DNA of 63,179 nucleotides, counting the filler. It is 11 parts of 11 records of this genome, joined end to end, with 100 filler letters (N's around TTAATTAATTAA, not from the genome) between each part and the next. Parts side by side here need not be neighbours in the genome. Positions count along the whole stretch, not along the records: positions 55,278 to 58,828 come from SRR7504441_820; positions 58,929 to 63,179 come from SRR7504441_823; 9 more parts are not named here. One strand, 5' to 3'. Made by a program: the position numbers and the translations under genes. Below the pieces are notes generated by a model, which was not told where the DNA came from, did not search any database, and worked only from the letters and a program-made list of their open reading frames with translations. Below, one piece after another: positions 12,347-63,179 of the stretch (the first letter of the stretch is position 1; every line of letters begins with the position of its first letter).

Positions 12347-15300
12347 GGAGGAGGTGTGAAATGGCAGACCAGAGCCATCAAGGGACCAGAGCGCGTTGGA
12401 GGCTGTGGTAGCTTGAAGCGGACACGGCGCTGTAACACTCAAGCCTGTCCTCGAGATTGTAAGCTCAGCGCTTGGACCAAGTTTGGATCCTGTTCAAACT
12501 CTTGCGGCGGTGGACATCAAGTGAGAACTCGTTCTGTGGTTGTAGACTTGATGTATGGAGGAAAGCCGTGCGGAAACCAAAGAGACCTCAGACGCTGTAA
12601 CACAGCGCCTTGTCCTGCAGACTGTGAAACTTCCAAATGGGGTTCATGGTCAAAGTGTGACAGCAAGTGTGGAACAGGTAACCAAAACAGAACCAGAACC
12701 ATAACACAGATGCCAACACCAAATGGTTATGAATGCCCAGCACTGATGGAACAGCGTCATTGCAAGACAAAGCCCTGTTCTGCAAATTGTACAGTCAGCG
12801 CATGGCAAGCGTGGAGTGGTTGCATGCGGAATGGAGCTGAGGTCAAATGCGGAAGCGGTTTAAAATACCGGTCGAGAAAAGTGCTGCAGCTGCAAAAGTT
12901 CAACAGTACCTCGTGTGGCCCGCTGTCAGAGAAACAAGTTTGCCATTCCCAACCTTGCTCAGTTGATTGCAAATATACTGTGTGGACCAAATGGAGCGGC
13001 TGCATGCGAACCTCTCAAGTGGGAGGCCGAAGATTCAGATTCCGTCAGCTGACGCCACCTAGTAATCATGGAGGCGCCTGTACTCAGCCGGTAGTTGAGC
13101 AACAACTCTGCACAAGCAAACCTACGCCCAATGGGTGCATGCTCTCTAACTGGGCAGCATGGTCTCCATGCTCTGCGCAGTGTGGGTCAGGGCTGCAGCA
13201 ATCTCACCGCATTGTGTACTCTCAGCCTACCCACAGGGGCAAAGCATGCGGGAGCCTGACCAAGTCCAGGCCATGCAATCCAGACCCGTGCCCCGTCTCC
13301 TGCCAAATGAGTGAGTGGGGAACCTGGAGCTCCTGCAGCAAGTCCTGTGGCAGCGGTACAACCAGGAGAGAACGAAAAGCGAAAACTGCTCCAGCACACG
13401 GGGGAGCTCAATGTCCTAACCAATTCGAGTCTGCACCTTGCAACACCGAACCCTGCGACTCGAGCTGTGAGTACACACCATGGACTGAGTGGAGTTTGTG
13501 CTCAAAGGAATGCGGCGGAGGCACCAAGTTCAAGTCCAGGACTCTTTTGACAGGTGACACGACCAAATGCCGCGATGTGAAGCAGTCGTTGGACTGCTCT
13601 ACTCAAGCATGCCCAATTGCTTGCATCATGTCAGAATGGTCGACTTGGCAGCCCTGCACTGTAGCATGTGATGGTGGCACAACACTGAGAATGAGAGAAA
13701 TAGTTTCCAAGCCACGGAATGGCGGCAAAGTATGTGGAGAAGTGAAGGACTATAAGGACTGCAATACCTGGGCTTGTCCAAAGGATTGTGTAGTAGTCAA
13801 ATGGAGCCAATGGCGGGCAAATGTGGCGTCACAGGTTCTTGCTCTCTGATGAAGTGTCAAGCCAAAAGTGTGGTGCCTTGACTCAGACCCGAGACTGTAA
13901 CATGCAACCTTGCCCTGTAAAGTGTGAGGTGAGCTCCTGGCAGCCCTGGGGTGAGTGCTCGCAGAAGTGCATCCAGAGTGGCAAAGTTGGCATTCAGTAC
14001 AAAGCTCGCAAGATACTAAAGCCCCCAATGTACAGAGGTGACTCGTGCCCAAAGCTCAAGAGGTCACGAAAGTGCAACGAGATTAGCTGTCCACAGTCGT
14101 GCAGTGTATCAGGTTGGGGCAACTGGACCAAGTGCAGTCAAAAGTGCGGCATCAAGAACGAAGCTGCAACATGCAGCTATGCCCAGTAAATTGTAAGATG
14201 TCTGCCTGGGCTGCCTGGAGTAAGTGCACAAAGGAATGCGTCACTGAGGATGGAGCTGGAAGGCAAATGAGAATGCGCAAGACTGTTGCAATGGCCGCAA
14301 ATGGCGGGCTTGGTTGCAGCAAGCGGCTGGAGACACGAGCGTGCAATACTCAATACTGTGGGGCAAAGTGTAGGTTTTCCCCTTGGTCCAAATGGAGTAC
14401 ATGCGATCGAAGTTGCTCATCGCCTTCCAGCCCAGGGCAGCAAACAAGGACACGGACTCTTGAAAGCGGCGAGGCAAAGATGTGTGGAGTGCTGGTAGAG
14501 AAGCGTCCATCAGAATGTCCAGCATCACCTTGGTCTGACTGGGATGAGTGTTCAACCTCCTGTGGAGGTGGGACACAGGTGAGGCACCGGGTCATTATTT
14601 CTGACCTGAGCCATCTTGGAATTCCATGTGGAAGAACAAAGGAATCTAGAACATGCAATACAGGTAAGGTGCAATGGAGGAAAACAGTACAAGTCCAGAG
14701 AGGTTTTGACTGCAGCCAAGTATGGTGGTGTCAAGTGTCCAAAGCTCAAGCTAATGCGCTCATGCAATGGTAATCCGTGTCCTATCAATTGCAAAGTTGC
14801 AGCTTGGAAAGATTGGATAAGCTGCTCAAAATCTTGCGGTGGTGGTATTCAGAGTCGATTTCGCATTGTGAAGACTAAACCAAAGCACGGTGGATCTGAG
14901 TGTCCACAGCTGAAAGAGAAGCGACGCTGTCGGACGAGACCGTGCCCAATCCACTGTAAGCTCTCAGTGTGGTCTCCATGGAAGGCTTGCACAAAGGAGT
15001 GTGGCGGAGGGACCAAAGCAAAATTGAGAAAGGTGCTCAGGAGCCCAAAGCATGGCGGTAAGAACTGTGAAGCACTAGAGGAAGAAAAGGCTTGCAACGA
15101 GAAGCCATGTCCTGTAGACTGTAAGGTCTCTGAGTGGATCGATGGGCGGTGCAACAAGTCTTGTGGGAAAGGCTCTTACATCAGGAAACGAGAAGTAGTT
15201 GTCAAGCCTCTGCATGGTGGCCCCTGTAAAGTTTCCGAGTGGGCAACTGGCAAATGTTCAAAGTCTTGTGGTGCTGGAAGTGCAAAGCGAACACGAAAGG

Positions 15301-15379
15301 TGATTCAGCAAGCCAAATTTGCTGAAGACCGCTCTGAATTCCATTGTCCAGCCCTAATCAGGGACATTCCCTCAAAGTC
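12347..15379 (+). CDS. Thrombospondin type-1 (spondin-like) repeat protein, internal fragment with disrupted repeats
   Basis: Roughly 18 copies of CxxSxWxxWxxCSxxCGxGxxxRxR...GGxxC...CNxxxCP. Frame changes near 13810, 14150 and 14665. Confidence 0.85.
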
Positions 15380-45908: not shown

Positions 45909-48900
45909 GCAAATGAAGTGACGATTGAGTCATCTGATAGTTTGCTAGTTGCTAGCGATAATGTTAAGGTCGCTACCACATGGAATGGCACGATCGCATT
46001 GGATCCGAAGGGCGGGTCTGTACAAATTGGTGGCTTGGCGCTTCAAGATACATCGATTCACTCAAAGGACGTACTTAAAGGGCTCGTACTCGACTCGTCC
46101 ATTGTACTGCGGTCACCTGAAGAGGTCGTGGTCCAAAGCTCTTTCACTGTGGACAGTCGGAAGCCTGTTTCTATTCAAGCTCCGTCAGTGGAGCTTGCGA
46201 GCACAGGCCTAAATGATGACCTGGTGCTCGCCACACGGGGAGGCGAGATTCAACTAGGAGATGAGCTCAAAGTGGACGCTGCGGGTCTGCTTAGCTCATC
46301 CAAGCTCAAGGGACTCGACCTGCGTTCTGCAGGGGACATCTCCTTCACTGCTGCCAGAGAGATTCGAATGACAGCACAGCAGATGGATTTGCGCTATCAA
46401 GATCATGTTGAGATCAAAGCAGATTCAATGCGGCTGGCGACAGCAGGACAAGATATAGAGCTTCAACCTTCAGGAGGAAGCGCTGTGATCGATTCAGTTT
46501 TTCTCTCTGGGGCTGAGATTCGTGGCAATGACCAACTGAAAGGTCTCCGGATAGCGAGCGATGCAATGCGCATTGGAAACCCTGACAGTACTCTACAAAT
46601 CATGGGCAAGACTCTTGATCTTCAAGGCACCAAAACTGTAGATCTTGATGCCGGGGAGCAGCTTACTCTCAAGGCACCTGCTGTTTTCGTCTCTGACTCT
46701 CTAACCATTGCTGATGTTGAATTATCTGGCAATTCTTTAACTTCGGGATCATCAAGTGCAGGGCTCACTCTTGACTCCAACAGTGGGATCTGGATCAGAC
46801 CTGGAGAGCAACATCCGGTGGTGGTGGATGGTGGACTCGAAGTCAGAACGTCTGAGCGCATCGCTCTATCAGGGGATGTCAGCCTGGATGGCAACGTAAG
46901 AATGAAAGGTGAGGTGGTGACGGACGCCTTAAGACTTGTCGGCAATCGATTCTCTGGACAGGAAGCGGTCAAGCCATTGGAACTTGCCTCTGTCACTCCA
47001 ATAACAATTGGGAGCAAGGAAGCTGTACAGCTAGCTGGTGATAGTATTGACATTGCAGCCAAGTCGGACATGGTACTGAGTGCTGACGAGCTGAGGTTGC
47101 ACTCCAACAACGACATTATTCTTCAAGATAAGGGCGGGTCTGTGCTGATCGACGGCATTAGCTTGGATGGGAGGGCCATGATGGGAACAGACCCTACAAA
47201 GAATCTTCATGTATTGGCCGACAAAGGGTTGCACATGCAAGCTGACGAAGTGCTTCACGCGCATGCACCTGAGCTTAATTTGGAGGCACAAGACGTGCTC
47301 AATCTGCGAGCACGTCGGATTCAAGCATCCACAAGCACATGGGGCTCAGTGCAGATCGACTCTCCCGGCGGAGGATTGCAGGTAGGGCAAAGTCTCGTAC
47401 TGCAGGACACTGAGTTACAATCTACCGACTCTCTTGGTGGATTAACATTGAACAGCCGGAATGAGCTCGTGTTAAATTCTCCGAAGGTTGTTGTAGATGG
47501 CTCGCTCGAGGTACAGGGTGCCGTGAGTTTACAAGGCAGGTCGATCTCCTTAACTGCAACCGAAGGAAGTGACCTTTTATTGCAAACTGTGGGTGGAGAA
47601 ATCCAGGCTGGCAGTGGAGTGGTCTTTGATGGACCTACAATGCTTCTATCAGATACTTTCAGAGGTAGGCTGGTTGCTGATGGGGCCATGCGCATGTCAG
47701 CTAGCGAGGTGGACCTCCAGGCTGGAAGGACTGTAGTGGCAAAGGCCCGCGACTCTGTTGAGATTGGAGGAGAGTTGATTCAGATTCAGACCGGCTGGCA
47801 GGGTCTGGTGCAGCTCAATGGGAGGGGAGGAGAACTTGTTGCTGGTGGCATATCGTTCTCGGACCAGATTTCGAGTACAGATGTTGTCAAGGGACTGGGG
47901 GTCCGAGCAGATAATCTCCTCCTGCAGGGTCGAAGCATCGATTTGCAGTCAGATGACATGCACCTTGAGGCCAGGTCTCAGCTGAGCCTGGTTGCATCTA
48001 CCATTTCAATGGCGTCCACAAAGCTCAATCAGCCAATTAGGATGGAGCAGACTGTTGTTACAGATCAGTTATCATTAGATGGGAACACTGTTGCTTCACT
48101 TGATCCTGTGTCGGGCCTGAAGTTCGCATCAGATAAAGATCTGACATTCCATTCTCCTCGAGTTGTGATGAACGGGCAACTGCAGGTCTACTCTGAGTCT
48201 GACGTGGAGTTTTCGGCTCACAGCCTGCTACTCAATGCGGAGACAACACATCTCAACACTAATGGCGGAGACGTAATTGCCTCTGGTCTGAGGTTTGATG
48301 GAACTTCGATTGTATCATCCAATGAACTGAAGCCTCTCCGGCTCTTTTCTCCTACAAGCATGCTCCTCGAGGCTGAGCAGAAGGTGTCACTCATGTCCCA
48401 TGATATAGACTTCTCGTCAGATAAGCTCAGCCTTTCGGCCAGCTCTCATTTAGAGCTCTCAACCGCCTGGGGGAGCGAGGGTGTTTCGTTCAACACCCCA
48501 GGTGGACATGTTCAAGTAGATTCACTCCAACTCGGCGCTGCAAACTTGCGCACATCTGACCTTGTATCTGGGCTGGCAATTCGAAGCCGCCGAGGACTGC
48601 AGGTAAGTGCAGCAACAGCACTCACTCTGGGTGCAGAAACGCTCGATCTGACTGCACTGGAGTCGTTGAATATATCAGGCTCCAGCGTGGACTTAAGTTC
48701 TGCATGGAATAGCAAGGTGCAGATCACAAGAGGTGGGCTTGCTGTTGGCCATCAATTGGTCTTTGAGGACACCTCTGTGACTTCTCATGACCATGTTAAA
48801 CCCTTGCAGCTTACCAGCGCATCTGATATCAATCTCAAAGCCAAGGGTGCTCTGCAATTGAATGGACTTGTAGTGGAATCTCGTGTTCATCCTGTCGAAA

Positions 48901-51900
48901 TTCATGGTGCAGGAATTGATCTTCAGACTGCAGCATGGGGCTCGGGAATTCAGATGACAACGAAGGGCGGGCAAGTGAGGATGGGGGATATTGTCGTTGA
49001 CCATGGGGCCATCGAAAGTGCAAATGCTATGAACCCGCTGCTCCTCAGGTCATCAGTTGGGGTCACTATTGGGGATGACAGAACTGACACACGGATCGAT
49101 GCAAGGTCGCTCTCATTGTACTCGTCTGGGCAGACTGAGATCAGCTCAGAAGCAATACGGATTGCAGCCCAAGGAAATTCTGGAATCGAGTTGGATGCAA
49201 CTGTTGTCAGGGTGGCAGATACTGAAATAAGTGGAGCTTCCCTCACTATGGCGGACAAAGCAAAATCAGCTATACTTCGCTCTGAATCATCGATTAGTGT
49301 TAAACCAAGCCATTCTTTGCTCCTTAGCAGCGCTGACTTGACACTCCTGTCACGTCAGCACACAACCATTAGTTCATCCGAGGCCTTGTCAATGACAACA
49401 GGATGGAATGGGCAGGTAGCAGCCCTAGTCCGTGGCGGTGATCTGCAGAGCCAAGATGTGAGGATCTCAGGCAGCACACTGATGTCTTCGAGCATGAAGG
49501 GCCTGCTGCTAGATGCCCCTGCTGGCATCACGCTGTCGAGCCCAGTGCGCATTAACAACAATCTTGAAGTAGAGACCGACGAAATTTCGATGCATGCTGG
49601 CAAGATGTCATTCGAAGCAGATGACCTTTCGTTCTCCACACGTGGTGGTGAAATCCGGGCAAATGGCCTTATCTTGGACGGTACACAGATTTCGTCTTCT
49701 GATCTCCTCAAGCCTGTTGAGATGGCCTCGACCCATGCACTGTCGCTGGCTAGTCCTGAATTGACGGTGACAACTGGCACTTTTGATGTCAGGGCTCAGG
49801 ATCGAATATCAATCAAGGCAAAATCTGTCGAGCTAGAGAGTGGTTGGAATCGGCCAATCGAATTCAGCAATGAACTTCAAGTCCAGTCACTGGAACTTAC
49901 TGGCCAACGGCTACAGAGCACTGACGAGATTCGAGGCTTGTCCCTGCACAGCAAAAGCTTAGTCTTCAGTGGGAGCAAGCAAAGACTCCAGGCGGAGAAA
50001 ATCGAGGCCAGTGCAAGTCGAATGGACCTGAAGGCAGACGTTCTGGATGTTACTGCAGATCAAATCAAACTTGATGCTGTGGGAAGCGAGACCCAGATAG
50101 GCGCATTGCGCCTGGGTGGGGTGGCAGTGGAAACAGAATCGCACCTGACTAAGCCGCTGCTGCTTAGTTCAGACGCTGGTGTCGTGCTCAAAACAGGCTC
50201 TGGCAAGCATGTGTCAATCCATGGCTCGGTGCATGCAACAGGCCCTAGCACCCTCATCGAGGGCGACCAAGTCAACCTGCGAGCTACAGGATGGGGCGAG
50301 GCTGTGAAGCTTGAAGGAAGAGTTGCCATTGGAAGTGCTCTAACAATCAATGGGCCAAGCGTGCATGCCACTGATCATGTGAAACCGTTATCTGTGAGAG
50401 GCGACCTTCTTGAGCTGCAAGCTAAAGACGAGCTTCGTGTTGAGGCTGATATCATTTCTGTGAACGCTGCCAAGGATGTTTCAATATCTGGCGACACTGT
50501 GCTATTACAGAGCAGTCTCAACAAGAATGTAGAGATCAAGCCTACTGGGGGAGCTCTTCTGGTGGATTCCCTGGTACTAGATGGTCACACGCTCCAGACT
50601 TACAACAGCCCTAAAGGCATGCTAATGAGGTCTAACGACATTGGAATCGAAGCAGCAGGCTCCGTAGAGCTTCGCAGTGCAACTGAGCTCCAGGTCCGGA
50701 GTAAATCAGTCATATTCGACGCTGCATCAATCCAGATGGAGACCGAATGGGGGACCTCTGGTATTGTGGTCGACAAGAGCTTAAAGGTGGGCGAGAGTCT
50801 CGAGATTGCTGGCAACACAATCAACTCAGGTGATATCCTTGCTGGCCTCCACATGAGGAGCAATGATGAAATAAAACTTCAATCTCACAAAGGAGTTCGG
50901 ATTGACGGTGCACTTTCTACGAGTGGCAACGCTCCTGTATCACTCTCAGGATCTTCTGTGCACCTTTCTGGGCCTGTGCGAGTCGAACCCCGTGGAGGCG
51001 ACTTTCAGGTCGAATCTCTCGAGATTGATGGCGCTCAAGTCCGGTGGTCGGATAAAGTGAAGCCTTCTACGTTGAGCGCATCAAAGAACCTCGAACTTAG
51101 GGCTGCAGACGAGATGAACATTAGTTCTGAACATGTTACCATCCATGCACAATCCAAGCTCGAGTTGTCCTCACAGGAGCTACGGATGGCAACCTCTGGC
51201 TGGAATCGTGACATCAATCTCCAAACGTCCGGTGGAGCAATTGTCGCGGGCGGACTGGTTCTTGATGGCTCCAGTGTCAATCCTACTGGTGATCACTCGC
51301 CATTGCTTCTCAGGCATAGCCGCGGCATCATCGCTCGGGCTGATACACTGGAAGTTGACAGCCACGATGTTCTCATCTCAGCGGCCAATATGATCGAAGT
51401 AGCAGCCCAGCGAGTCGAGCTGCAGAGTCAAGATGTAAGAATACGGACTTCGCCACTGACTGTAGGCTCGCTCAACTTAGATGGCTCAGGCGTAAATTCT
51501 GATGATGCTCTTGGAAACCTCCTACTTGATTCTCGTCGTGATCTTGTTCTGCAATCTGGTTCCGGGCACGGTGTTCAAATTTTCGGTGCTTTCGAGGCGG
51601 ATTCGCCCCAGGTTAGTCTGACAGGGGATAAGATCAACCTTAGTGTCTCTGGTTTGAATGAGAATCTTCAGCTTGGGCTTCGTGGAGGTGATTTGATGGT
51701 CGATTCTGCTCGCTTTTCGGCAGCTGGATTCGAAAGCCTTGAACGCGTCAAGCCACTTTCCATTCGTGCTGCACATTCCCTTGAGCTCAAAAGCAAAAGT
51801 GTGGGGCTTGATGCTAGTGAGTTGATGCTTTCAGGCGACAGGATTGATTTGCGTTCACCCACACTCGCAGTTTCAACTGGATATGGTGGAGAATTAAGCT

Positions 51901-54900
51901 TTGGGGCTGCTGGGAACCCTGTCCAAGTGTCTGGAATCAATATCGAGGGCAGCGAGCTCCGGCCCGTCCACCTCCACAGTCATCTCAATCTGCGTGCGCA
52001 ATCGCTGGGAATCGCAGCTGAAGACGAGCTGCGTCTAGCATCGAGCTCTGTCGAGATTTCAGCAAGGGACTCCGTGCAGGTGATGGCTTCCCAGACAGTG
52101 CTCCTCGCCAACCAAAAGCTGAACCAGCCTATCAGACTAGATACAGCAGGAGGAGATGTCCAAGTGGATGACACGCGTCTGAATGGAAATTCCCTTTCAA
52201 GCACCAGCATTGCAGGGCTGACAATCCAGTCTGATGAGCAGTTGTTGCTGAAAGCAGGAACAAAGCACAGCGCTTACATTTCTGCACGGGCTGTCGAGCT
52301 CAAAGGAGAAGATGTGCTTGTTGACTCAAGGGCTATTACAATGAGAGCAGAAACAATAGAACTCGATCCCCAGGGCATGGGTGGCTCTGTTTTGCTTGGT
52401 GAGAGCATGGCAATCACGGGACCGCGGCTTAGCCATCAGTCAGAAACCAAGGCACTGCTGCTTCAGGCAGCTGGTGGAATGGCCATTCAAGCCAAAAGCA
52501 TTCACACTACCGCTGCCGTGTATGAAGTCGAAGCAAAGCAGTTGGAGCTCAAGGCGTCAAAAATTGAGATGGAAACTGGATGGAACCAAGCCGTGACCCT
52601 GAATGGCGAGGTTAGGGTTGGCCAACTTGCTATGGAAGGCTCGTCTCTTTCCTCACAGAGTGCCACAGGACTTAACTTTCATTCTGATCGAGAATTGCGT
52701 CTGCGCTCAGACCAGGTGCTGGCCTTGACCAGCACAGATGCGGTGCAGGTTGTGTCTGAGGGTTCTGCAACCCTGAAGAGCGAGCAATCCATATCACTGC
52801 AGACGGCATGGGGTGGGACCACCAGGGTCAGCAGTGGGCTTCTTGTGACTGATGCACTGGAGCTCAGTGATACCCACTTGACTAGTAGTGACGCTGTGCA
52901 AGGACTTGGCATTGAATCTGCCGGCGATCTTACGCTGAGGGCTGGGGATGGTCAGGAAGTGCGGCTCATAGGGAGCACAGTCGAAGTTGAATCGGCAAAG
53001 CCTTTCAGTTTAACAGCAAATACGATAGAGCTCGAGACAAATGGGCTGAACGGTGACATTCGGCTTGCGCCTCGTGGTGGGGATGTCTTGGCAGCCGGTT
53101 TGCAGCTTGCACCCACTGAGATCCAGACTCAGGATCCCGTCAAGGGCTTGGTCCATCGCCACTCTCACCTGAGATATATTGCTGAGGATGGCCAGATTGA
53201 GTTATCCGCACCAGAGACGATTATCAAGGCTACTGAAGCATTCATACAAGCAAATCAGATTCAACTTCAGTCTGGTTGGGACAGGGATATACAGTTAGAT
53301 GCTACTGAGGTTGCCGTAGGGGAATCTGGCATGGTACTTGGCGGCACAAAACTGTATACCGAAGGAGAAGGGGGCAAGCCTCTTCTACTTCGCTCATCAA
53401 AGGCTATCATCGGACGTGCTGACCATGTGGGCTTGCAAGCACAAGATATTACGATGTCAGGCACTGAAGCTGTGAACATTGCAGGCAGTCGTGTTGGAAT
53501 CGAGACTAGTTATGGGGGAGATGTTCGCGTGTCTCATGGGCCTCTTAGAGTTGGTGGTCTTGCGCTCGCTGATTCGAGCCTGAAGTCAGAGCACAGTCTT
53601 GTACTGCAGTCCAGACAAGATATTTCACTTGCCTCACAGGTGGGTACTACCCGAATTCAGGCCGGGGAATTTGTGGTCTCAACGGCAGAGAGGCTGCACA
53701 TGGATGCATCAAAAGTAGAGTTAAATGCAGACGAGACTGTAGTGACTGGAGCTCTGCGAATGAATTCAATTGAGATGGATGGATCCAGAATCAGTCATGT
53801 TGGACAAGTGCTTAAGCCATTGAGGATCGCATCCACCTCTGCAGTGGACATCCAAGGCTCAGAGACTCTCAGCCTGCGGGGAGAGTCGCTCACAATGCAG
53901 CATGAGCGTCTCAGTTTCGATGCACAGCACATCTCGATTGGCAGCACGAAGTGGGATGCTTCAGATCTCTCACTGAAAGGCCGCACTGTCTTTGCAGATG
54001 CCATAGCAATTGATGGCCCGACTCTGGACAGCTTGGAAACGGTACACCCGCTGCAGCTGCGAGCAAAGACGCTAGGGCTGGTGGCCTCTGATCGATTGGA
54101 CATGCAGGCAGGCAACGAAATCGATATTTCTGCGGCAAAACTGGAGCTGCACAGCAAGCAGGGCATCAGGCTCTCCACAGGCTGGAACGCGGAGGTAACC
54201 ACAGACGCCGGTCTTGCAATTGGAGACCATGGTCTGAGGTTCAGTGGTGCAACAATCGGAACTTCCAGCCTCAATGTGAAAGACTTGGTCCTTGAGTCTG
54301 AAAAGGACCTAACGCTCAAGCCACAAGGAGCCGTCCTGGTGCATGGTGGACTAGTAGTGGACTCAGAGTCTCCCTTCAAAGTTGCCAGTCCATCCATCGA
54401 GCTCGAGGCTGCCCCAATGGGACAAGGCGTGAGCATCCAGTCCCATGGAGGAGCTGTGCGAATTGCAAAGGTCCAACTCAAGGGCACACGTATCAGCTCT
54501 CTAGATGCAGTCAAAGGTCAGGCTATCGGTAAGAACAGTTCTCCAATTCAAATGCGTGGCAGTGCCATAGGGCTGTCTACTGAAGGATCCATGGATTTGA
54601 CATCTAAAGCGGCAATAGACCTGAAAGCACAATCGATTCTGCTGGATACCGGGCCATGGGGTGGAGTAACAGTTGGGAGGCGCGGATCGGTTCAAGTGGC
54701 AGGCATTGATTTTGATGGTCAGAGCATCAGGCCTGCTGAATCAGCTAATGCATTAACATTGCGCTCTGAAAACGCTGTGGCACTCAAAGCCCACAGCCTC
54801 GAGGCGCAGGCAACCGACATTGATCTCACAGCTACAGGCAGTGTTGAAATTTCAGCGGCTACACTGCAGCTCAAGACCGCGCATGACAGGCTAGTAGACA

Positions 54901-55177
54901 TTACAAATGGCCTGCGAATTGGACACAGCGGGCTGCAGATTGATGGATCCTCTGTGGAAGGAGTGTCGCCTGTGAGCCCCTTGAAACTCAGTTCAGGGCA
55001 TCAGTTGGACCTGAAAGCCAGTGGCTTGCTTCATATGAGATCAGATGCCCTGACACTTGCTGCTGATCAAGGTGTCAAACTGGTTGCTCCATCGATTGGT
55101 TTCGCAACGGGCCTGAATGGAGATGTAAGAGTTGAGGCAAGAGGTGGTGCGTTTGCCATTGGTGATGAAATGAAGTT
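45909..55177 (+). CDS. Giant beta-strand repeat protein (>3089 aa, both ends missing)
   Basis: One uninterrupted frame across the whole contig; ~75-80 aa unit TGWNxxIxL...GGxV...LxLDGxxIxSxDxLK(G/P)LxLxS. Confidence 0.9.
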
Positions 55178-55607
55178 NNNNNNNNNNNNNNNNNNNNNNN
55201 NNNNNNNNNNNNNNNNNNNNNTTAATTAATTAANNNNNNNNNNNNNNNNNNNNNNNNNNNNNNNNNNNNNNNNNNNNTTATCCAGATAATTATAATTATT
55301 CGTTTATGTGGTTGTGTTTCTCACTGGACTTTGCAATCTCCCAAGTTCAAACGATCGAATTAATTTGGTTCCAAATATATATGTATTACTATTGTAATAC
55401 AATTGAAGTTCGAGTACTACAATCGAAGTACGAGTACTAACTACTTGGAATAGTAATTAGTAACTTGATTGTCCCAATCATCAACACAATAATGAAAACT
55501 TCCGCACTTAGACAGAATCTCCAAGGATTTGGTCTATTGTATAACGTAACGTTGATCAGCATGACTAACTCAGCCGCCAAAGAACACAGATCAGAATCTG
55601 GATTGGC

Positions 55608-58600
55608 CTAGAACAATGGGGCGTCGTGGCCCTCATCCATCACCTTGAACAGTTTATTCTTGGCCGACGGCTTGCTAGCCACGTCCTGCAGGCCCACATT
55701 TACTCACTGGCCCATTATGTAGCAAAGCAGGCTCTCACCCGGAAGAGAGAGGAGCGGTCCATTATGGTGCGCAGATCCTCATCGCTCAGGTGCTCCTTGT
55801 TGATCTTCTCATCAGCATACCTGTTATCACGACGGTAAATATTAATCGCGTTAGCTAAATACTTGTCCTCGAGCATGTCCATCAGCTCCTGTACATCGAC
55901 CGCCTTGATGTCCTCCTTCTTTGAAGTAGCGCCTGAATCACAAGCCCTTAGACACAGTCATTCGAGCTCTCAGCCTCACCAGCCTCAACAAACTTTCCAT
56001 TTGAAACCACCAGGTGCTCCAGCCGCCGCTTGTTGGCTGCTTTCTCGATCATCTTCTCCTCGACAGAGTTGGCCGCACACAGTCTGTAGACCAGAACAGG
56101 CTTCTTTTGGCCAATCCGGTGGCAGCGGTCCTGCGCCTGCGGTCCGAGTGTTGAACAGTCACAACCCGGATATTGAAAACAGCACCTGTAGGTCGGCTTG
56201 AGGGTTCCAGTCACTATCAAAGATCACAACAGTGTCTGCGGCCACCTACCACCGGCTATACATGGTGCCCGCAGGTGGCAGCACCAGGTTGATTCCGAGT
56301 CCACCGGCGCGCGTGCTGAGCAGGAAGCAGTTGACGTTGGGCGACTTGTTGAAAGAGTCCATCTGATCCTGCATGAAGCGCTCTCAGCCACAGACCAGAG
56401 GGCAAAAGCGCTCTCAGCCATAAGTCACCTGCCGATCGTCCAGCTTGGTTGATCCATCGATCCGGCAGTAGTTGAACCCCCTGTTGGCTGGGGTGAGGCC
56501 ATGTGTCGGTGCTCTTAACGCTGTTATCATCATCACCGCAAGATCATGTAGTCCTCGATGATTGAGAGCATCTTGGTCATTTGCGAGAAAATCAAAACCT
56601 TGTGCTTCTGAGCAAAGAGCTTGGGCAGCAGCCTGCGCCAACGCTCATTTGCTGATCACAAAAGGTTAAGAGCGTCACCGGTCGAGCAGTGCCATCTTAC
56701 CAGAGGAGCTCACCTGATCGCACTGATAAGAATGAAGATACATCTAACACAATCACCAGCGACTCGTCGGTCTGGCCTGGGTCGACTTCCTCAAACAAAA
56801 ATGGATGGTTGCACACCTGATCATAGCAATAATAATAATTATAACAATAACAATAATAATAGCCGGGGGCGCTATGCCTTGCGGAGCTGCATCAGGAGAT
56901 TGTTGAGCGAAGTCTTGGGAAGCGGCTTGGCAGTGCTCTTTTTGGTGCTAGGGGCCAGCTCCTTGGACATTTTGAGCGCCTTTTTGCCCCTGTGCTTGGC
57001 CGAAACCTGGCATCGCCAACGTTCAAAGCATTTCTTGCTTAAGGCTCGACCTTGGCCTGCACCAGCTCGTCCATATCCTCCGACTCGTCCACCTGCAACA
57101 GTCAGTTAGCGTCAAACAAATTGAAACTACGGTACCGCGTGCAGCCATTGGCGCTCTGTCATCCCCTGAGCCTCATCGTAGCATACATCCTCCTTAGCCC
57201 GCTGGCCTCTGCCCATCGGCTCCTCCTCCTCGTCGCTCTCAGGCGGCTCGATTGAGCGGTACATGAGGATATTCCGGTACATCCTGAGCTGCTCAGCCGA
57301 GTTGCCACAGTAGAGCACGATCTCCTTTTTCCGCGGAATTTCCTACAGGCCACCTATCATTAGTGAGAAATTATTCTTAATGGACCAGGTCAACGTCCAT
57401 TTTCTGCCGACGGAGCATGAATGGCTTCAGGATTGAGTGAAGCTTGGCCACTATCTGATTCTCCTGCTCCTGCTGAATGATCCGGTTGGCGTCGGCCACG
57501 TTTGAATGGTCAAAGTCAAACCTTTGGTGACCGCCAATCAGCATCAAATTTGAATCAAACGCACCAGCTCTGGAAGGCGGCGAGCGAGTCAAAGATGTCC
57601 GGCAAGATAAAATTCAGCAGAGACCTGAACATGATAGTCATATGAACAACAATAACAGTTCACACCACAGCTCAGTCAGATCGTTCTGAAGGGGCGTGCC
57701 CGTGAGCAGCAGCCGATTCGAGGCCGGGACAGTCTTCAAATCCCGAATCAACCTGCACTACCAGCTCAATTCCCTCATTCAAAGCCACCGCCCACCTGCA
57801 GTCCTTGTTCTTGAGCCGGTGGCCCTCATCCACCGTGAGATATTTCCAGCCAGTGCTCCAGGCCCGGGCCGGCCGCTGCAGGAACGCGATGTCCCGCATT
57901 GCAATCTCGAAGGAAGTCACCACAACATGCACCTGCAGCTGGTTATTTCACATCAAACTAGACTTGCACCTCGTCAGTGCCCCACTTCTTGCGGAGCGCA
58001 GTCCGCTCGGCCTGGTCACGCATATCAATGAATAAATAATGAGATTTAGCATGATGCCTGGGAGCCATGGTAGAGTTGCGGACTCATTGCCGGGCACCAG
58101 AACTCAACCTCGCGCACCTGAATAAATAAATGAAGATTTCCCAATTGCTCGCCCGCACCCAGTTCCGGAGCACTGACAGCGGGCCCACCACCAGGAACGG
58201 ACCCTGTCAAGCATGTTCCCAGTCACGTGCTGACGCACACAGTTAACCCACCCGGACGCCTTGCGAAAAGATGTGTGCCAGGAACGCAATCGTCTGGACA
58301 GTCTTGCCCAGGCCCATCTCGTCGCCCAGGATCCCGTTCATCCCGTTCTCGTACAGCGACACCAGCCAGGCCGTCCCTTGCAGCTGGTAGTCCCTCATCT
58401 TCCCGCCGACGATCAGCTCCGGTTGCACCTCATTGCCCTCGGTCTTAGGTTGCTTGCCCTTCCCCCCGGTTGAGGCAGCCTTGCGTTTCTGGCCGACTTG
58501 CTGGCCGTTTTCCGTTGCCAGCTCGTCCCCGGTGGACTTGTTGGCACCCTGGATCTTCGCATCCACCTTCCTGATCTGGGAGCTCACGAATTTCGAGTAG

Positions 58601-58828
58601 CACGCAGTCTTGTCGAGCAGGGAGTGCAGGCTGTCCATCACAATCAGCCCCTGGCCCACGGGCGATGGCTATGCCTGTCCATGCGCTTGCGCTCCTTGTT
58701 GGTGTCGAGGGATTTGAGCACCTCGCCGGCCTCTAGCTGCTTCTGGCTCTCGGCCAGGTCGCTTTGCTTGTTCAGCTCGGCCTCCATTTTCTCCAGCTTC
58801 TCCACGCTGCGGAGAAGCTCCCGGCGGC
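55608..58828 (-). CDS. DDM1: SNF2-family chromatin remodeller DDM1/HELLS (5' truncated; 21 introns)
   Basis: [81 protein letters not shown] after manual splicing. Confidence 0.92.
56828..56861. repeat. Imperfect (AAT)n microsatellite inside a GC-AG intron
   Basis: aataataataattataacaataacaataataata. Confidence 0.8.
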
Positions 58829-58928
58829 NNNNNNNNNNNNNNNNNNNNNNNNNNNNNNNNNNNNNNNNNNNNTTAATTAATTAANNNNNNNNNNNNNNNN
58901 NNNNNNNNNNNNNNNNNNNNNNNNNNNN

Positions 58929-61900
58929 CACTCGGCCGGCCATTCTCAGCCACAGATCCGCCGTTTGAAACACCTCGAATCACGTAAAAGTTTTGCTGCT
59001 CCCACATAGGGCCGCGGTCAAGATCCGAAGAGAAGCCCTGCGTCGTCTCGGTTAAGCTGTTTCATCCAGTGTTAATTAAGCAGCACCTGAGTGTCTGTGG
59101 ACACAGTCGGGAGAGGCACGGCTGTCCAGAACTCTTTTGTCTGAAGCATTCTGACCATGCCAGCCACTCGATCAGGCTTCATCCCGCGAGCCATCAGAGG
59201 ATAAAACCTGTCGACCGCTCTCAGGCCACGATTTTTCGGTTACCCGGCGACTGTCTTGATGCTCATCAGGGAGCCGTTGAAGAACCGATCGTAGTAGAAT
59301 TCAGTGGCGGAGTCCCACATCAAAGCGTCGAGCGCTTCGGTCGTATTAGTCGCTACTGCGGTCCAGAAAGCGACTCGCTCAGTGAGCTTCAACTGCACAG
59401 CCATCGAGGCAAGCGCCTGCCCCCGGCCGCTCTCAGGCCACAGATTCTGGGGCTCGGCAGTTCACAGCCACAATCGGGTGCAGTTGGTGTCACCTGGGCT
59501 TCGTAGATGATGTACGAAGTGAAGTCAACAGACCAGTGGTCACTGGCACAACACGACGAATACTCCGATGAACAGAACGTCTGCTCATGATCCATTCCGG
59601 CCTCACAGGCTTGACTCCAGTACAGCAAGAGCCCCTCCAGCCCCACGCCCTTGCGCCTGTTGGCCAGATGCCACTGGATGTACGCTTCCAGCTTTGGGAA
59701 CAGCTGCGCCAGCGTCTGAGTGTCGTTGGTCTGCCCAAACCAATCGAGTGCCACCAGCGCCATGTTCGGCGGCATCGCGTCGGTGAAGCTAAGGCACCCG
59801 CTTGGCGAGAACTCTGCACAAGCCTGTCCGGTGCTGTTGTCTTGAAACTGGAGGAAAGATCTGAAGTAGTCTAGAGACAGCGACGGCGAGACTCGATTCA
59901 TCGCCACGGTCTGCACCACACAGTTAGTACAGTCCCATGGTGAACAACTTCCCCATGTTTAAGGTGTCAAGCTGAATAACAGTAGCTTCCTTTAAAAGGG
60001 CATGATACCTGCATCATGCCATCCCATAGATACATGTTCTGATGCGGCGCCCTGCACGTTGTGCTCCAAGCCTGATTCACACGACCCTCCGCAGACAGGC
60101 TGTTCACTTTCATCACACTCAGCAGCTTCCTTTGGAACTCATCATCGCCGCGGTTGGCTAAAGCAGGCAAGCTCCCAATGAACCGATTCCTCGCTGCAAG
60201 CACCTGTCACCGCCAAAACATCAACACAGCACTCAATGTATAGCACCGCAGCTGGGTCCAATGAAGCTTCACACCCAGAATGGGCCTTCCCAGCCGCATT
60301 GTAGCACAGAGCGAAGCTGACCAGGCCTGTTGACCGTTACAACCAAAGCCAACAGTCAACGCAAGACCTGAGCCGAGATCTTTACTAGCAAACGTGAGTG
60401 TGTCGGTCGGAGTTGTCGAGACGTTGACGAGCCGGCCTCCGGTGCAGCCTCCGTTATCTCCAGTGGCTGTGAGGGCAACTCCTTGCTTCGTGGTCACAGT
60501 AAATGCTTTGGGCGCCTCGGCTTGTTGGTAGATTACGTACATGAAACCATCAACAGTCGCCTCCTCCAGCAGATCCAAAGTCAGTTTCCATGGGGCTCCG
60601 GCTGGCGTATCCGCATTCCAGAAGCTATCGCAATCAGGCTTCACCACGTTGCTAATTGGTCCGTTCGGATGCGACAGGCCTGAAGCGCGCCACGAGGTGG
60701 AGGTGCGCCACTGGCCGCCAATTCGGAGCGACACGTAGCAAATGGTCGGCCCATACCTGGCGCTTTCCTCATAAGGCAACTGGCCTAGGCTCACCCATCG
60801 AATGAGTTTTGAATCGTCCAGTTGAGCGTCTTGAGCTTGACCGCTTGACCAAAGTCAAACTGCTTGACCGCCCCGCAGTTTCGCTTCTGCTCCAGCAGCC
60901 CCGCCTGGCCTGCTCACAACAGTCAATTCAACCCGACGACGAATCAAGCTCCATGCCTGATCCTTCCACCCAGCCCACAATGGTGTGTGCATCGGCCCAG
61001 CTGACCGCCAAAACTCCGCCATCTCGGCTCTTCACCACCAGCGCGTCATTTGTCGCTACGACAACCTCATCTGTGCTGCTGGCAGCCGCTTCGGGGCCGA
61101 ACCCTAGGCTGAGGATCCGAGGCGTCGGGAGCCACAAATACACCGAGTACGAACCGTTGACAAACCAACCGACAAATCGAGACGGGGTATCCGATTGGCC
61201 GTCGATGCCAGAGAATCCAAAGAGAGCTCCGCTGGTGCTGCCAAGCCCCGAGCTGGCGTCCTGCCATGACCGTGATCGGCCGCTCTCAGGCCACAGACTG
61301 GGCAGTTACCTGGAAGGTGGATAGTCCCGCAGCCTCACCGCCGTATGTGCGAGGCAAATACTTGGGGTAGCTGCTCAGATCGCACACTGGCGGCGAGTTG
61401 CCGACACCGACTCCGTAAGGCGAAAAGGCCGTGCAATTGGCGTATTGTTTGTTTGCATAGGGTGTGACAACGACGTCGATGAACGAAATGCCCAGAGGCG
61501 ACTCAGGCAGGCCGAGGAAGAATCCAGGTTCTTGTACTGAGCCTCGGACTAGCTTCACTGTGACGTTGCGGACTGTGGGAGTCTGGATAGTCGGGGCTAG
61601 ACCTGAGGCCAACTGTGACATGGCAACGATGATTCGGACCTGAAGACGATTCCATTTGGACCCTAACCACTTGGTCGCAGTCGACGCAGGTCGTGTTGTA
61701 GACCAGAACCTACCAACAGCTGTCAGCCCTCTGCGCTCGGCGCTAAGGGCAATGCATCCATCATGCACTACTCACGTTTTCTATCGTGCCGCCTCGCCCT
61801 CTCTCAGACTTGACAGTGAGCACTCGGGGGCCCCAAGTCCACAGCGCAGGGTTGGTCCGTGCGCCGCCTCGCAGCACGTTGTGGCTCACTTCAACGTCTC

Positions 61901-62784
61901 GCACATCGCCAGACATCTCGGAACCAAACGCCACGCCACCTGGCCGGGCAGATTCGGTTAAATACCGTTAGAATCAGTTAATGTCACCCGAAAAGTTGAA
62001 GACATTGTTTGTGACAACGACCCGTTCAGTGGCTCGGCCATAGGCCCGGCCGCAAGCGTCCATCCCGGACTTGAGCGCCACACCGTCGTCGCCAACCTCA
62101 ATGTGGTTGCCAGCAATGTATACCTGCCCAGCTGCGGTGAGACACTCAACCGCTACCACCACAGTCACATCTTGACTAGAATCCACATCGACGCCGTCGG
62201 TCGTGATCGCGGTGATTCCGTTGACAATCCGGCAGCCGACCACCCGCACCTGCCCGGCCTGTCATGTCCGTTGATTTCCGTTGACCCGCCTGCTGACAGC
62301 TGTACAAGTGCACAGTCCAGTACGCGCTGCCGCCCATCTGCAGGTCCTCGAGACGGATCCGTTGTGAGTAACGGAACTGCACCAGCCGAGGCCCACCGCC
62401 GCCGTTGGCGAAGCCTCCGTCGATGGTCCCCCCACCCGTGATGGTGACGTCTGTGACGTTGAGCCCGCCAATGAAAGGCCGAGAGCAGGAGCCGCGACAG
62501 CCGCAGTAGCTGGGGAGGTCGGGCCAGGCGGGCAGGTCGCGCCGCCCCCCGCCCTGGAGGACAGCCCCGGGCTGGAGCTGGAGCGTGAGGTGGCTGGGCA
62601 GGTCTAGCCAGCGCACAGCGTACAGGCCGGCCGACAACGTCAGCAGCCCCGGCGCACCGGGCACGCCCGCGCACTTGTTTATCGCTGTCTGGACGGCAGC
62701 TGTGGCGTCAGGGCCCGCGATCGGGCCGAGGGTGCAGCCGTCCCGGCCGGCAGCACGAGCAGCTGACAGCACGAGCAGCTGCAT
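58929..62784 (-). CDS. Secreted multidomain glycoside hydrolase: GH28-like + F5/8-C(CBM32)-like + GH63/MGH1-like (3' truncated)
   Basis: ITGGGTIDG, TTDGVDVDSS, GDDGVALKSG, GSEMSG, KSERGRGG; SFWNA...LTLDL; YLWD, EAGMD, MWD....FYYD, RGPMW. Confidence 0.8.
59417..59493 (-). mobile_element. Candidate introner-like intron (family motif TCTGTGGCCTGAGAGCGGCCG)
   Basis: 21-nt identity (59424-59444) with intron 61261-61309 (61277-61297); related copies in three other introns. Confidence 0.45.
61261..61309 (-). mobile_element. Candidate introner-like intron, same family
   Basis: gtaactgcccagTCTGTGGCCTGAGAGCGGCCGatcacggtcatggcag. Confidence 0.45.
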
Positions 62785-62868
62785 CAGGGCGCCCAAAAGG
62801 CTCCATCCCTGTGCTCGCTTTCCGTTAAATCCCGTTGAGCTTTTTTTCTCCTCATCGCAAGCGAGCAA

Positions 62869-63179
62869 ATGGCTTGGTGTAGGGCGGGCCCAGGCGGGGG
62901 CTGGGGCCTGGCGGTGCTGGTGCTGGCGGCGCTGGCCGGGGGGGCGGAGGCGGTGGACCCTTCGGGACTGACCGCGGACGCCCGGAGCCTGGCGGCGGCT
63001 GACCAACTGTCCGAGGGCCTACCCGACGGCCAGGTGCGAGGGCCCGGAGCGCAGGGGGGGCTGACGAGGCGAGGGGCAGGCGGCGGCGGCGGCGGCGGCT
63101 GAGACGGAGAAGCTGGCGAGCAAGCTCAAGGTCCATGCAAAGCTCAGCAAGCTGTTATAGCATCGAAGGGTGGAGCCCA
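62869..63179 (+). CDS. Secreted or membrane protein, 5' fragment
   Basis: ATG, signal-peptide-like LAVLVLAALAGGAEA, followed by a ~45-nt GT-AG intron. Confidence 0.55.

Follow-up and report, generated by a model that had tools for sequence, protein, structure and literature searches.

Do several of the very short introns found in two unrelated genes derive from one common intron-forming sequence? The question is raised by a stretch of 63,179 bases (hereafter, the window), which comprises 11 contigs, with spacers of N and a short AT linker placed between them, and in particular by its last two contigs, one carrying a gene for a DDM1/HELLS-like SNF2 helicase (positions 55278–58828, 53% G+C) and the other a gene for a multidomain hydrolase (58929–63179, 60% G+C). 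The two intron-bearing contigs are separate, with an N spacer at 58829–58928 between them. Among the sources of new introns, introners are the best documented, and marine protists have supplied most of the known families. The evidence described below indicates that these two genes, from an uncultured marine eukaryote, probably contain a small introner-like family of spliceosomal introns that are very short and homologous to one another.

Five introns, designated I1 to I5, share the core GTGGC(C)TGAGAGCG. The 21-mer TCTGTGGCCTGAGAGCGGCCG occurs in the window exactly twice, at 59424–59444 and 61277–61297 (0.02 occurrences expected, and two or more in none of 100 shuffles), the 15-mer GTGGCCTGAGAGCGG is present exactly three times (59215, 59427, and 61280), and TGGCTGAGAGCGC exactly twice, both times within 56369–56428. 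With up to two mismatches allowed, TGGCTGAGAGCGC has seven matches, the five non-exact ones being at chance level (4.39 expected). All-against-all local alignment was performed for 36 introns of the two genes (630 pairs), and the scores were compared with those of 37,800 shuffled pairs. For the ten pairs within the core-bearing group of five, the scores were 45, 34, 33, 29, 29, 27, 26, 25, 21, and 16; eight of these pairs, with scores of 25–45, are eight of the top ten among the 630, while a score of 25 or more was reached by only two of the 37,800 shuffled pairs. The top score among the remaining 620 pairs was 24. The preliminary description of this DNA had quoted several of these strings, with their places on the minus strand, and had proposed that look-alike introns occur on two contigs; all the strings were found there, and the exact repeats and pair scores above those of shuffles bear this proposal out.

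Four of the five core-bearing introns belong to the hydrolase gene, and all of them are on the minus strand. I1 (j6; 61261–61309, 49 nucleotides (nt), phase 0) is composed of one unit, in which a GTAACT leader is followed by the core with the exact 21-mer and by a 16-nt tail ending with CAG; its removal restores both the frame and the alignment to the homologues P0002, P0003, and P0004. I2 (j12; 59417–59493, 77 nt, phase 0) consists of two tandem units, a degenerate one at 59466–59493 and a complete one at 59417–59465, which opens with its own GTGAACT, and the junction left by its removal is seamless relative to P0003 and P0006. The smallest complete member, I3 (j13; 59208–59243, 36 nt, phase 2), has a 14-nt leader, a 15-nt core, and a 7-nt tail, and, compared by tblastn with P0003 and P0006, appears as an insert of 12 codons that includes a stop. 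I4 (j15p; 58929–58973) is partial: its donor is at 58973, its one-C core variant GGCTGAGAAT, with GAGAAT, is located at 58941–58955, and after the core another unit apparently starts before the contig ends. The exon preceding I4 aligns to P0003 and P0006 as far as the junction.

In the helicase gene, I5 (i16; 56369–56428, minus strand, 60 nt, phase 0) is again made of two tandem units, 56396–56428 and 56369–56395, both of which open with GT and contain TGGCTGAGAGCGCTT, and its junction is seamless relative to the transcript-derived P0008 and P0007. The alignment of I2 and I5 as two tandem units each agrees with the earlier view of the two longer introns as internal duplications. A possible diverged sixth member is intron i19 of the same gene (55933–55979, minus strand, 47 nt), which has the same two-part layout as I5, namely GTGAGGCTGAGAGCTCG followed by a second unit about 63% identical to the second unit of I5; its alignment score with I5, 20, is weak, since 94 of the 37,800 shuffled pairs reach 20 or more. 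All six window copies are in the sense of the host gene. When both strands of the entire window were scanned with the complete I2 unit, nothing further emerged above chance, and the other nine contigs contain no family copy. Matches similar to GGCTGAGAG at 13219, 8782, 5999, and 53866 were rejected, since they fall within coding sequence, the antisense of coding sequence, or weak predictions, and by score none qualifies as a member.

In the alignment of the family, the middle is invariant, the leaders are specific to subfamilies, and the tails are variable. I1 and the second unit of I2 share AACTGCC...CAG..TCTGTGG, from the donor-proximal AACTGCC through the 21-mer. The two-C core is found in I1–I3, GGCCG after the core is common to I1, I2, and I4, and GGCTGAGAGC is common to the two units of I5 and to i19. 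In a BLAST search against a database of the 36 introns only, E-values were 6e-8 for I1–I2, 1.5e-4 for I1–I3, and 2.4e-4 for I2–I3, and the I1–I2 match covers intron bases 13–33 of I1 and 50–70 of I2. The BLAST matches are confined to the introns and absent from the 20-nt exon flanks, and the flanking exons encode unrelated parts of two unrelated proteins; therefore, exon paralogy is not the cause of the similarity.

The introns were fixed by hand from tblastn alignments with homologues, 21 in the helicase gene and 14 in the hydrolase gene, giving 35 complete introns; with I4, which is cut by the contig end, 36 introns were compared in all. Automatic intron finders, both ab initio and hint-driven, were set aside because they mis-joined the short exons, and manual curation was used instead. 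The complete introns are 36–98 nt long, with a median of 44 nt. Removal of the 21 helicase introns leaves a frame of 749 codons ending in a stop, and the spliced sequence aligns end to end, gap-free at the junctions, with P0008 and P0007, both taken from transcript-length records. Removal of the 14 introns from the hydrolase gene leaves an open frame of 1035 codons that aligns with P0002, P0003, and P0006. If read through, the family segments introduce immediate in-frame stops or frameshifts. Judging from this homology, the family segments are real short spliceosomal introns.

GC–AG boundaries are present in five of the 35 complete introns (58631–58674, 58012–58057, 56817–56877, 60910–60956, and 62250–62289, all on the minus strand), the last of which was placed by frame and domain logic only. 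Four of these five GC-donor introns start with GCAT, and two of them, i1 and i12, are identical over the first seven bases. In the region 58631–58682 (minus strand), which includes intron i1, the last eight bases of the upstream exon, ATGGACAG, recur as the last eight bases of the intron.

The position of the core within the introns suggests a function for it. A yTnAy motif with 13–18 nt after the A is present in 18 of the 30 non-family introns, and in nine of the 30 this distance is exactly 13 nt, so that on both contigs the spacing between the likely branch A and the 3' splice site is strikingly constant. None of the five complete family introns, i19 included, has yTnAy at the branch-site distance. 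Instead, in three of the four complete members that have the core, CTGAG is found 13–16 nt from the 3' splice site, with 13 nt after its A in I3, 15 in the second unit of I5, and 16 in I2, while in I1 this distance is 25 nt. In I2, the terminal AG holds the sole A downstream of CTGAGAG of the core. The invariant middle of the unit, GGC(C)TGAG, thus most likely serves as the branch site.

It could be supposed, then, that the introns are alike not by descent but owing to selection that keeps an extended branch-site or splicing-enhancer sequence similar. CTGAG does occupy the branch-site distance in introns with no other yTnAy there, the middle of about 20 nt is the only part common to all members, and GGCTGA also opens the likely branch motifs of the non-family introns i1 and i8. 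However, 30 of the 35 complete introns of the same genes use a plain yTnAy or less, without an extended motif, the identity extends over 21 nt in the window and 34–38 nt in the metagenomes described below, including leader and tail bases with no known role, and the units are repeated in tandem. The sequence CCUGAG would be expected to pair with the conserved GUAGUA box of U2 at only about three positions, which also counts against selection on a functional motif, and we consider this explanation very unlikely. A branch-point motif around CTGAG had been suggested earlier: its location is indeed that at which the other introns carry the branch motif, whereas such a motif alone does not account for the near identity over 21–38 nt, the subfamily leaders, and the tandem units. 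An Rfam search over the window revealed no family, hence no U2 gene. Folding of the family introns was not better than that of shuffles in any case, with z-scores of -1.01, -0.08, +0.31, -1.18, -0.47, and +0.31.

Relatives of the element were also found outside the window. Three marine or aquatic metagenome runs contain 6–9% of the words of the hydrolase contig, and their contigs were compared with this contig only. Among the 23 contig pieces listed, nine longer ones represent unique gene sequence, with 1–9 differences in 134–330 nt, and span five non-family introns gap-free, which shows the same population to be present in those runs. Seven of the 23 pieces match the element alone (59419–59458 or 61276–61313) over 34–38 nt, with 2–4 other letters, and continue into unrelated sequence past the element borders. 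Three loose ends, read on the minus strand, carry three different upstream exon-like flanks, each ending at a GT donor; behind one of them the leader is that of I3 except for one base and one extra T, and another shares the donor and leader of I1. The 3' tail is reached by an I2-like copy, and no single pair extends end to end. The orientation is sense in all three metagenome copies in which the donor side is visible. Three more loose ends are unit-to-unit junctions with a 31-nt period, four joint records join element pieces in tandem (one of these appears to be the same as record 16 of the seven), and one array contains three cores.

By our estimate, the chance expectation of a 35-nt match with no more than four mismatches in about 2 gigabases (Gb) is of the order of 1e-5. 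The matches are therefore further copies of the element at other loci, some of which could nevertheless belong to the 3' portion of the hydrolase gene that lies beyond the contig end. An 18-mer of the core gave 11 single matches in the metagenome collection, a collection that does not include the window's own loci, all in bacterial-looking contexts, and 12 single chance-level matches, also in bacterial contexts, in 596 Gb of prokaryote genomes; it is not a common word. A 17-mer of the core had no matches in viral contigs. The contigs placed on the hydrolase contig contain no gap or joint showing an intron-less allele. Short imperfect matches from all three runs to the G+C-rich low-complexity region 62900–62957, upstream of the hydrolase start, were ignored.

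The tandem arrangement brings up the possibility that a 31-nt minisatellite expanded secondarily inside pre-existing introns, a class that the published introner pipeline removes. The tandem units of I2 and I5, and the unit-to-unit junctions and three-core array in the metagenome contigs, would be expected from such an expansion. On the other hand, I3 (36 nt) and I1 (49 nt) are almost wholly one unit with its leader, and without the element fewer than 10–20 nt would remain in them, too little for an intron. Moreover, the donor-bearing leader itself is shared, between I3 and a metagenome copy and between I1 and the records at 61276–61313, and Tandem Repeats Finder, run at its lowest score threshold, reported no array at the family introns. 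A minisatellite origin therefore seems quite unlikely.

Another possibility is local propagation only, in which introns were copied within and near their own genes, whether through duplication, through gene conversion between introns, or through reverse splicing that targets the transcript of origin, with no genome-wide mobile family. The hydrolase gene has four of the six copies and the helicase gene the other two, the likeness is greatest between copies of the same gene, the neighbouring non-family introns i3 and i4 are also alike, and the other nine contigs are free of copies, all of which such propagation would explain. It does not readily explain a family present on two unlinked contigs, or the occurrence of the element in metagenome contigs with three different upstream flanks and with tandem arrangements not seen in the window, and we regard it as unlikely.

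The helicase introns i3 (58118–58158) and i4 (58012–58057), both on the minus strand, flank a 60-nt exon and have in common an AT-rich stretch about 20 nt long. With a score of 24, reached or exceeded by five of the 37,800 shuffled pairs, they form the top non-family pair, and they may represent a second case of sister introns within one gene. Another similarity was noticed between helicase intron i8 (57522–57564) and a 43-nt intron on another contig (39776–39818, minus strand), known from ab initio prediction only: a string of 14 nt surrounding a branch-like CTGAT motif is found in both.

The preliminary description had proposed a comparison with orthologues at the intron positions. The position of I1 is uninterrupted in P0002, P0003, P0004, P0152, P0154, and P0155, and the positions of I2, I3, and I4 are uninterrupted in P0001, P0003, P0005, and P0006, as well as in P0147 (I2–I4), P0139 (I3 and I4), P0002 (I2 only), and P0145 (I4). 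Every homologous open reading frame (ORF) covering a family position is uninterrupted there, the contigs in question being either DNA or transcript, and several of the hydrolase relatives break off elsewhere, with read-through tails. For the helicase, one short stretch was compared: P0127 and P0131, ORFs of ENA contigs from a close relative that belong to the 90% cluster of P0008, run through the positions of introns i6–i8 (57522–57795) and leave the transcript sequence at a position where the window helicase has no intron. Altogether, the host genes differ from close relatives at every comparable intron position, which suggests rapid intron turnover in this lineage.

Several of the observations weigh against an introner-like family. 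The homologues lacking the family introns also lack the neighbouring non-family introns, and the absence therefore does not mark the family as younger. The copies are few, five or six, with four of them in one gene, as local duplication could produce. Conservation is in the middle of the introns while the ends vary, and the similarity between window pairs does not extend to both ends of the introns; transposon-derived introners are usually conserved at the ends rather than in the middle. With a search space of 5 Mb, the BLAST E-value is 1e-4 for I1–I2 and at least 0.25 for the rest, and none reaches the published 1e-5. No metagenome contig in the comparison with the hydrolase contig spans a family intron together with both of its own exons. 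Terminal inverted repeats were sought in the family introns and none were found, apart from 5-bp terminal pairing in I1 only, and CAG before the intron and CAG at its end are indistinguishable from the splice consensus. By eye, the flanks (CAG|...CAG|G, CGG|...CAG|G, GAG|, and CTG|...CAG|G) match only to the extent of this consensus. Consequently, the inverted repeats and target-site duplications that the earlier account had proposed to look for give it no help: the former are absent, and any of the latter is not separable from the AG|G consensus. The intron-generating element it had envisaged fares better, in that the introns are related by descent and copies occur at other loci, while its mobility is only inferred.

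In the introner-like reading, which we prefer, every member consists of a roughly 31-nt unit, present once or twice, with a short leader in front that carries the GT donor and a short tail behind that ends with CAG, and one unit would bring all that a U2-type intron of 36–49 nt needs. The copies are oriented in the sense of the gene and occupy exon sites resembling AG|G; they are found at unrelated positions in two or more genes, as well as at the metagenome loci. They would have arisen by insertion of the element, that is, by intron gain, and the units would have been duplicated in tandem later. Two routes of spread can be envisaged, transposition of DNA in trans and an RNA route in which the excised intron is reverse-spliced and reverse transcription or repair follows. 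We lean slightly towards the RNA route, since reverse splicing fits somewhat better with sense-only copies, clustering in genes, the likeness of copies within a gene, and the i3/i4 pair; six copies are too few to decide between the two routes.

One could further hypothesise a minimal self-sufficient introner, with a 31-nt unit in which the branch site is the sole strongly conserved part and which can form head-to-tail multimers, every unit having its own GT. The excised intron would be reverse-spliced first at sites close by in its own transcript and later in other genes, and a recent burst of such events would have filled some genes of the protist with about one intron per 100 coding bases. 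This extended version is doubtful in our judgement. If true, hardly any shorter sequence could give rise to a new spliceosomal intron, and such an introner would be largely invisible to BLAST-based introner surveys. For the family itself, a complete 36-nt member with a branch-site core offers a compact natural test of what makes a sequence an intron. Families this short can fall under the E-value and end-similarity filters of present surveys, so that, where introns are minimal, the surveys may underestimate how often elements of this kind have added introns.

Introner families as such are already known. In the accessible part of the survey by Gozashti et al. (2022; PMC9860276), families were described in 175 genomes, with median lengths of 30–654 nt and from 5 to more than 2,000 copies; many of these genomes are marine, including Tara Oceans genome bins, and the worked examples are 64–77 nt long. 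Membership there required a BLAST E-value of 1e-5 or less, similarity starting within 5 exonic or 10 intronic bases of both boundaries, no explanation by paralogy, and at least four introns per family, and the published test for target-site duplications requires at least 15 copies (PMC9860276). In the window pairs the similarity does not start so close to both boundaries, some of the metagenome copies reach one end, paralogy is absent, and the introns number more than the minimum (five clear members and one doubtful). According to the same part of the survey, some families, DNA-based ones included, have neither target-site duplications nor terminal inverted repeats (PMC9860276). The introns described here resemble those introners in being similar at unrelated positions, in the occurrence of GC donors, in the aquatic link, and in lengths of 36–77 nt, within the range reported, and differ from them, as far as this source goes, in the five to six copies and metagenome fragments, in the conservation of a central branch-site core rather than the ends, and in the tandem multimers. 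The features of introners resembling miniature inverted-repeat transposable elements (MITE-like DNA transposons), namely terminal inverted repeats of at least 6 nt and site-variable target-site duplications, are not seen in the family.

The introner elements of Micromonas are reportedly several times longer than those considered here. In the portion of Simmons et al. (2015; PMC4540971) available to us, they are located inside transcription units in sense orientation and are removed as introns, their families comprise tens of identical copies scattered over the genome, and the proposed mode of spread is reverse splicing, with DNA or R-loops as the target. Like these elements, the window copies are in sense orientation inside transcription units, with removal inferred from homology. 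Beyond the window, contigs of three runs show the element behind no fewer than three other upstream flanks and in several tandem settings. Fungal introner-like elements, in the accessible part of Collemare et al. (2013; PMC3609843), are multi-copy, degenerate towards ordinary introns, and are longer than regular introns, with stable predicted structures and a proposed RNA-based route of spread. In contrast to the elements so described, the single-unit members of the present family, 36–49 nt against the median of 44 nt, are of ordinary length, and no fold is better than shuffles.

Sister introns of Oikopleura are said to cluster in the same gene, which has been taken as a sign of local intron propagation. 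The present sister introns likewise cluster in one gene, Oikopleura being a different lineage, and we know of no shared core doubling as a branch site in its introns. Near-identical introns within one Oikopleura gene are mentioned in the available portion of PMC4540971. What is unusual in the present family is the minimal size, the conservation centred on the branch site, and the tandem units. The core string was found in none of the full texts searched, supplementary tables of the introner surveys, which possibly list the family, being outside this search, and a literature search for Telonema introns returned no paper.

The host genes were identified by Pfam and by homologue searches using single exons. 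The hydrolase gene (58974–62784, minus strand), which is cut by the contig end, contains 14 complete introns and I4. It encodes a secreted-looking multidomain protein with an N-terminal parallel beta-helix/GH28-like part, a weak F5/8-type C match, and a C-terminal trehalase/GH63/MGH1-like part; its homologues carry PF01204, PF03200, and PF22422, and a search for a relative of the gene among prokaryote genomes found none. The helicase gene (PF00176; 55608–58828, minus strand), whose 5' end is cut by the contig end, has 21 introns of 37–61 nt within 2.25 kb of coding sequence, and it is matched best by transcriptome proteins of EukProt, among them one that bears the label Telonema subtile.

Two other contigs are worth mentioning. 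In the region 12347–15379, the minus strand looks, by eye only, antisense to a plus-strand cysteine- and tryptophan-rich repeat protein, and the GGCTGAGAG match at 13219, located within it, is not a family member. The contig 45909–55175 (plus strand) consists of a single uninterrupted frame of 3,089 codons, open at both contig ends and free of introns, with a third-position G+C of 0.49, lower than in the other contigs, and may originate from another genome in the same bin.

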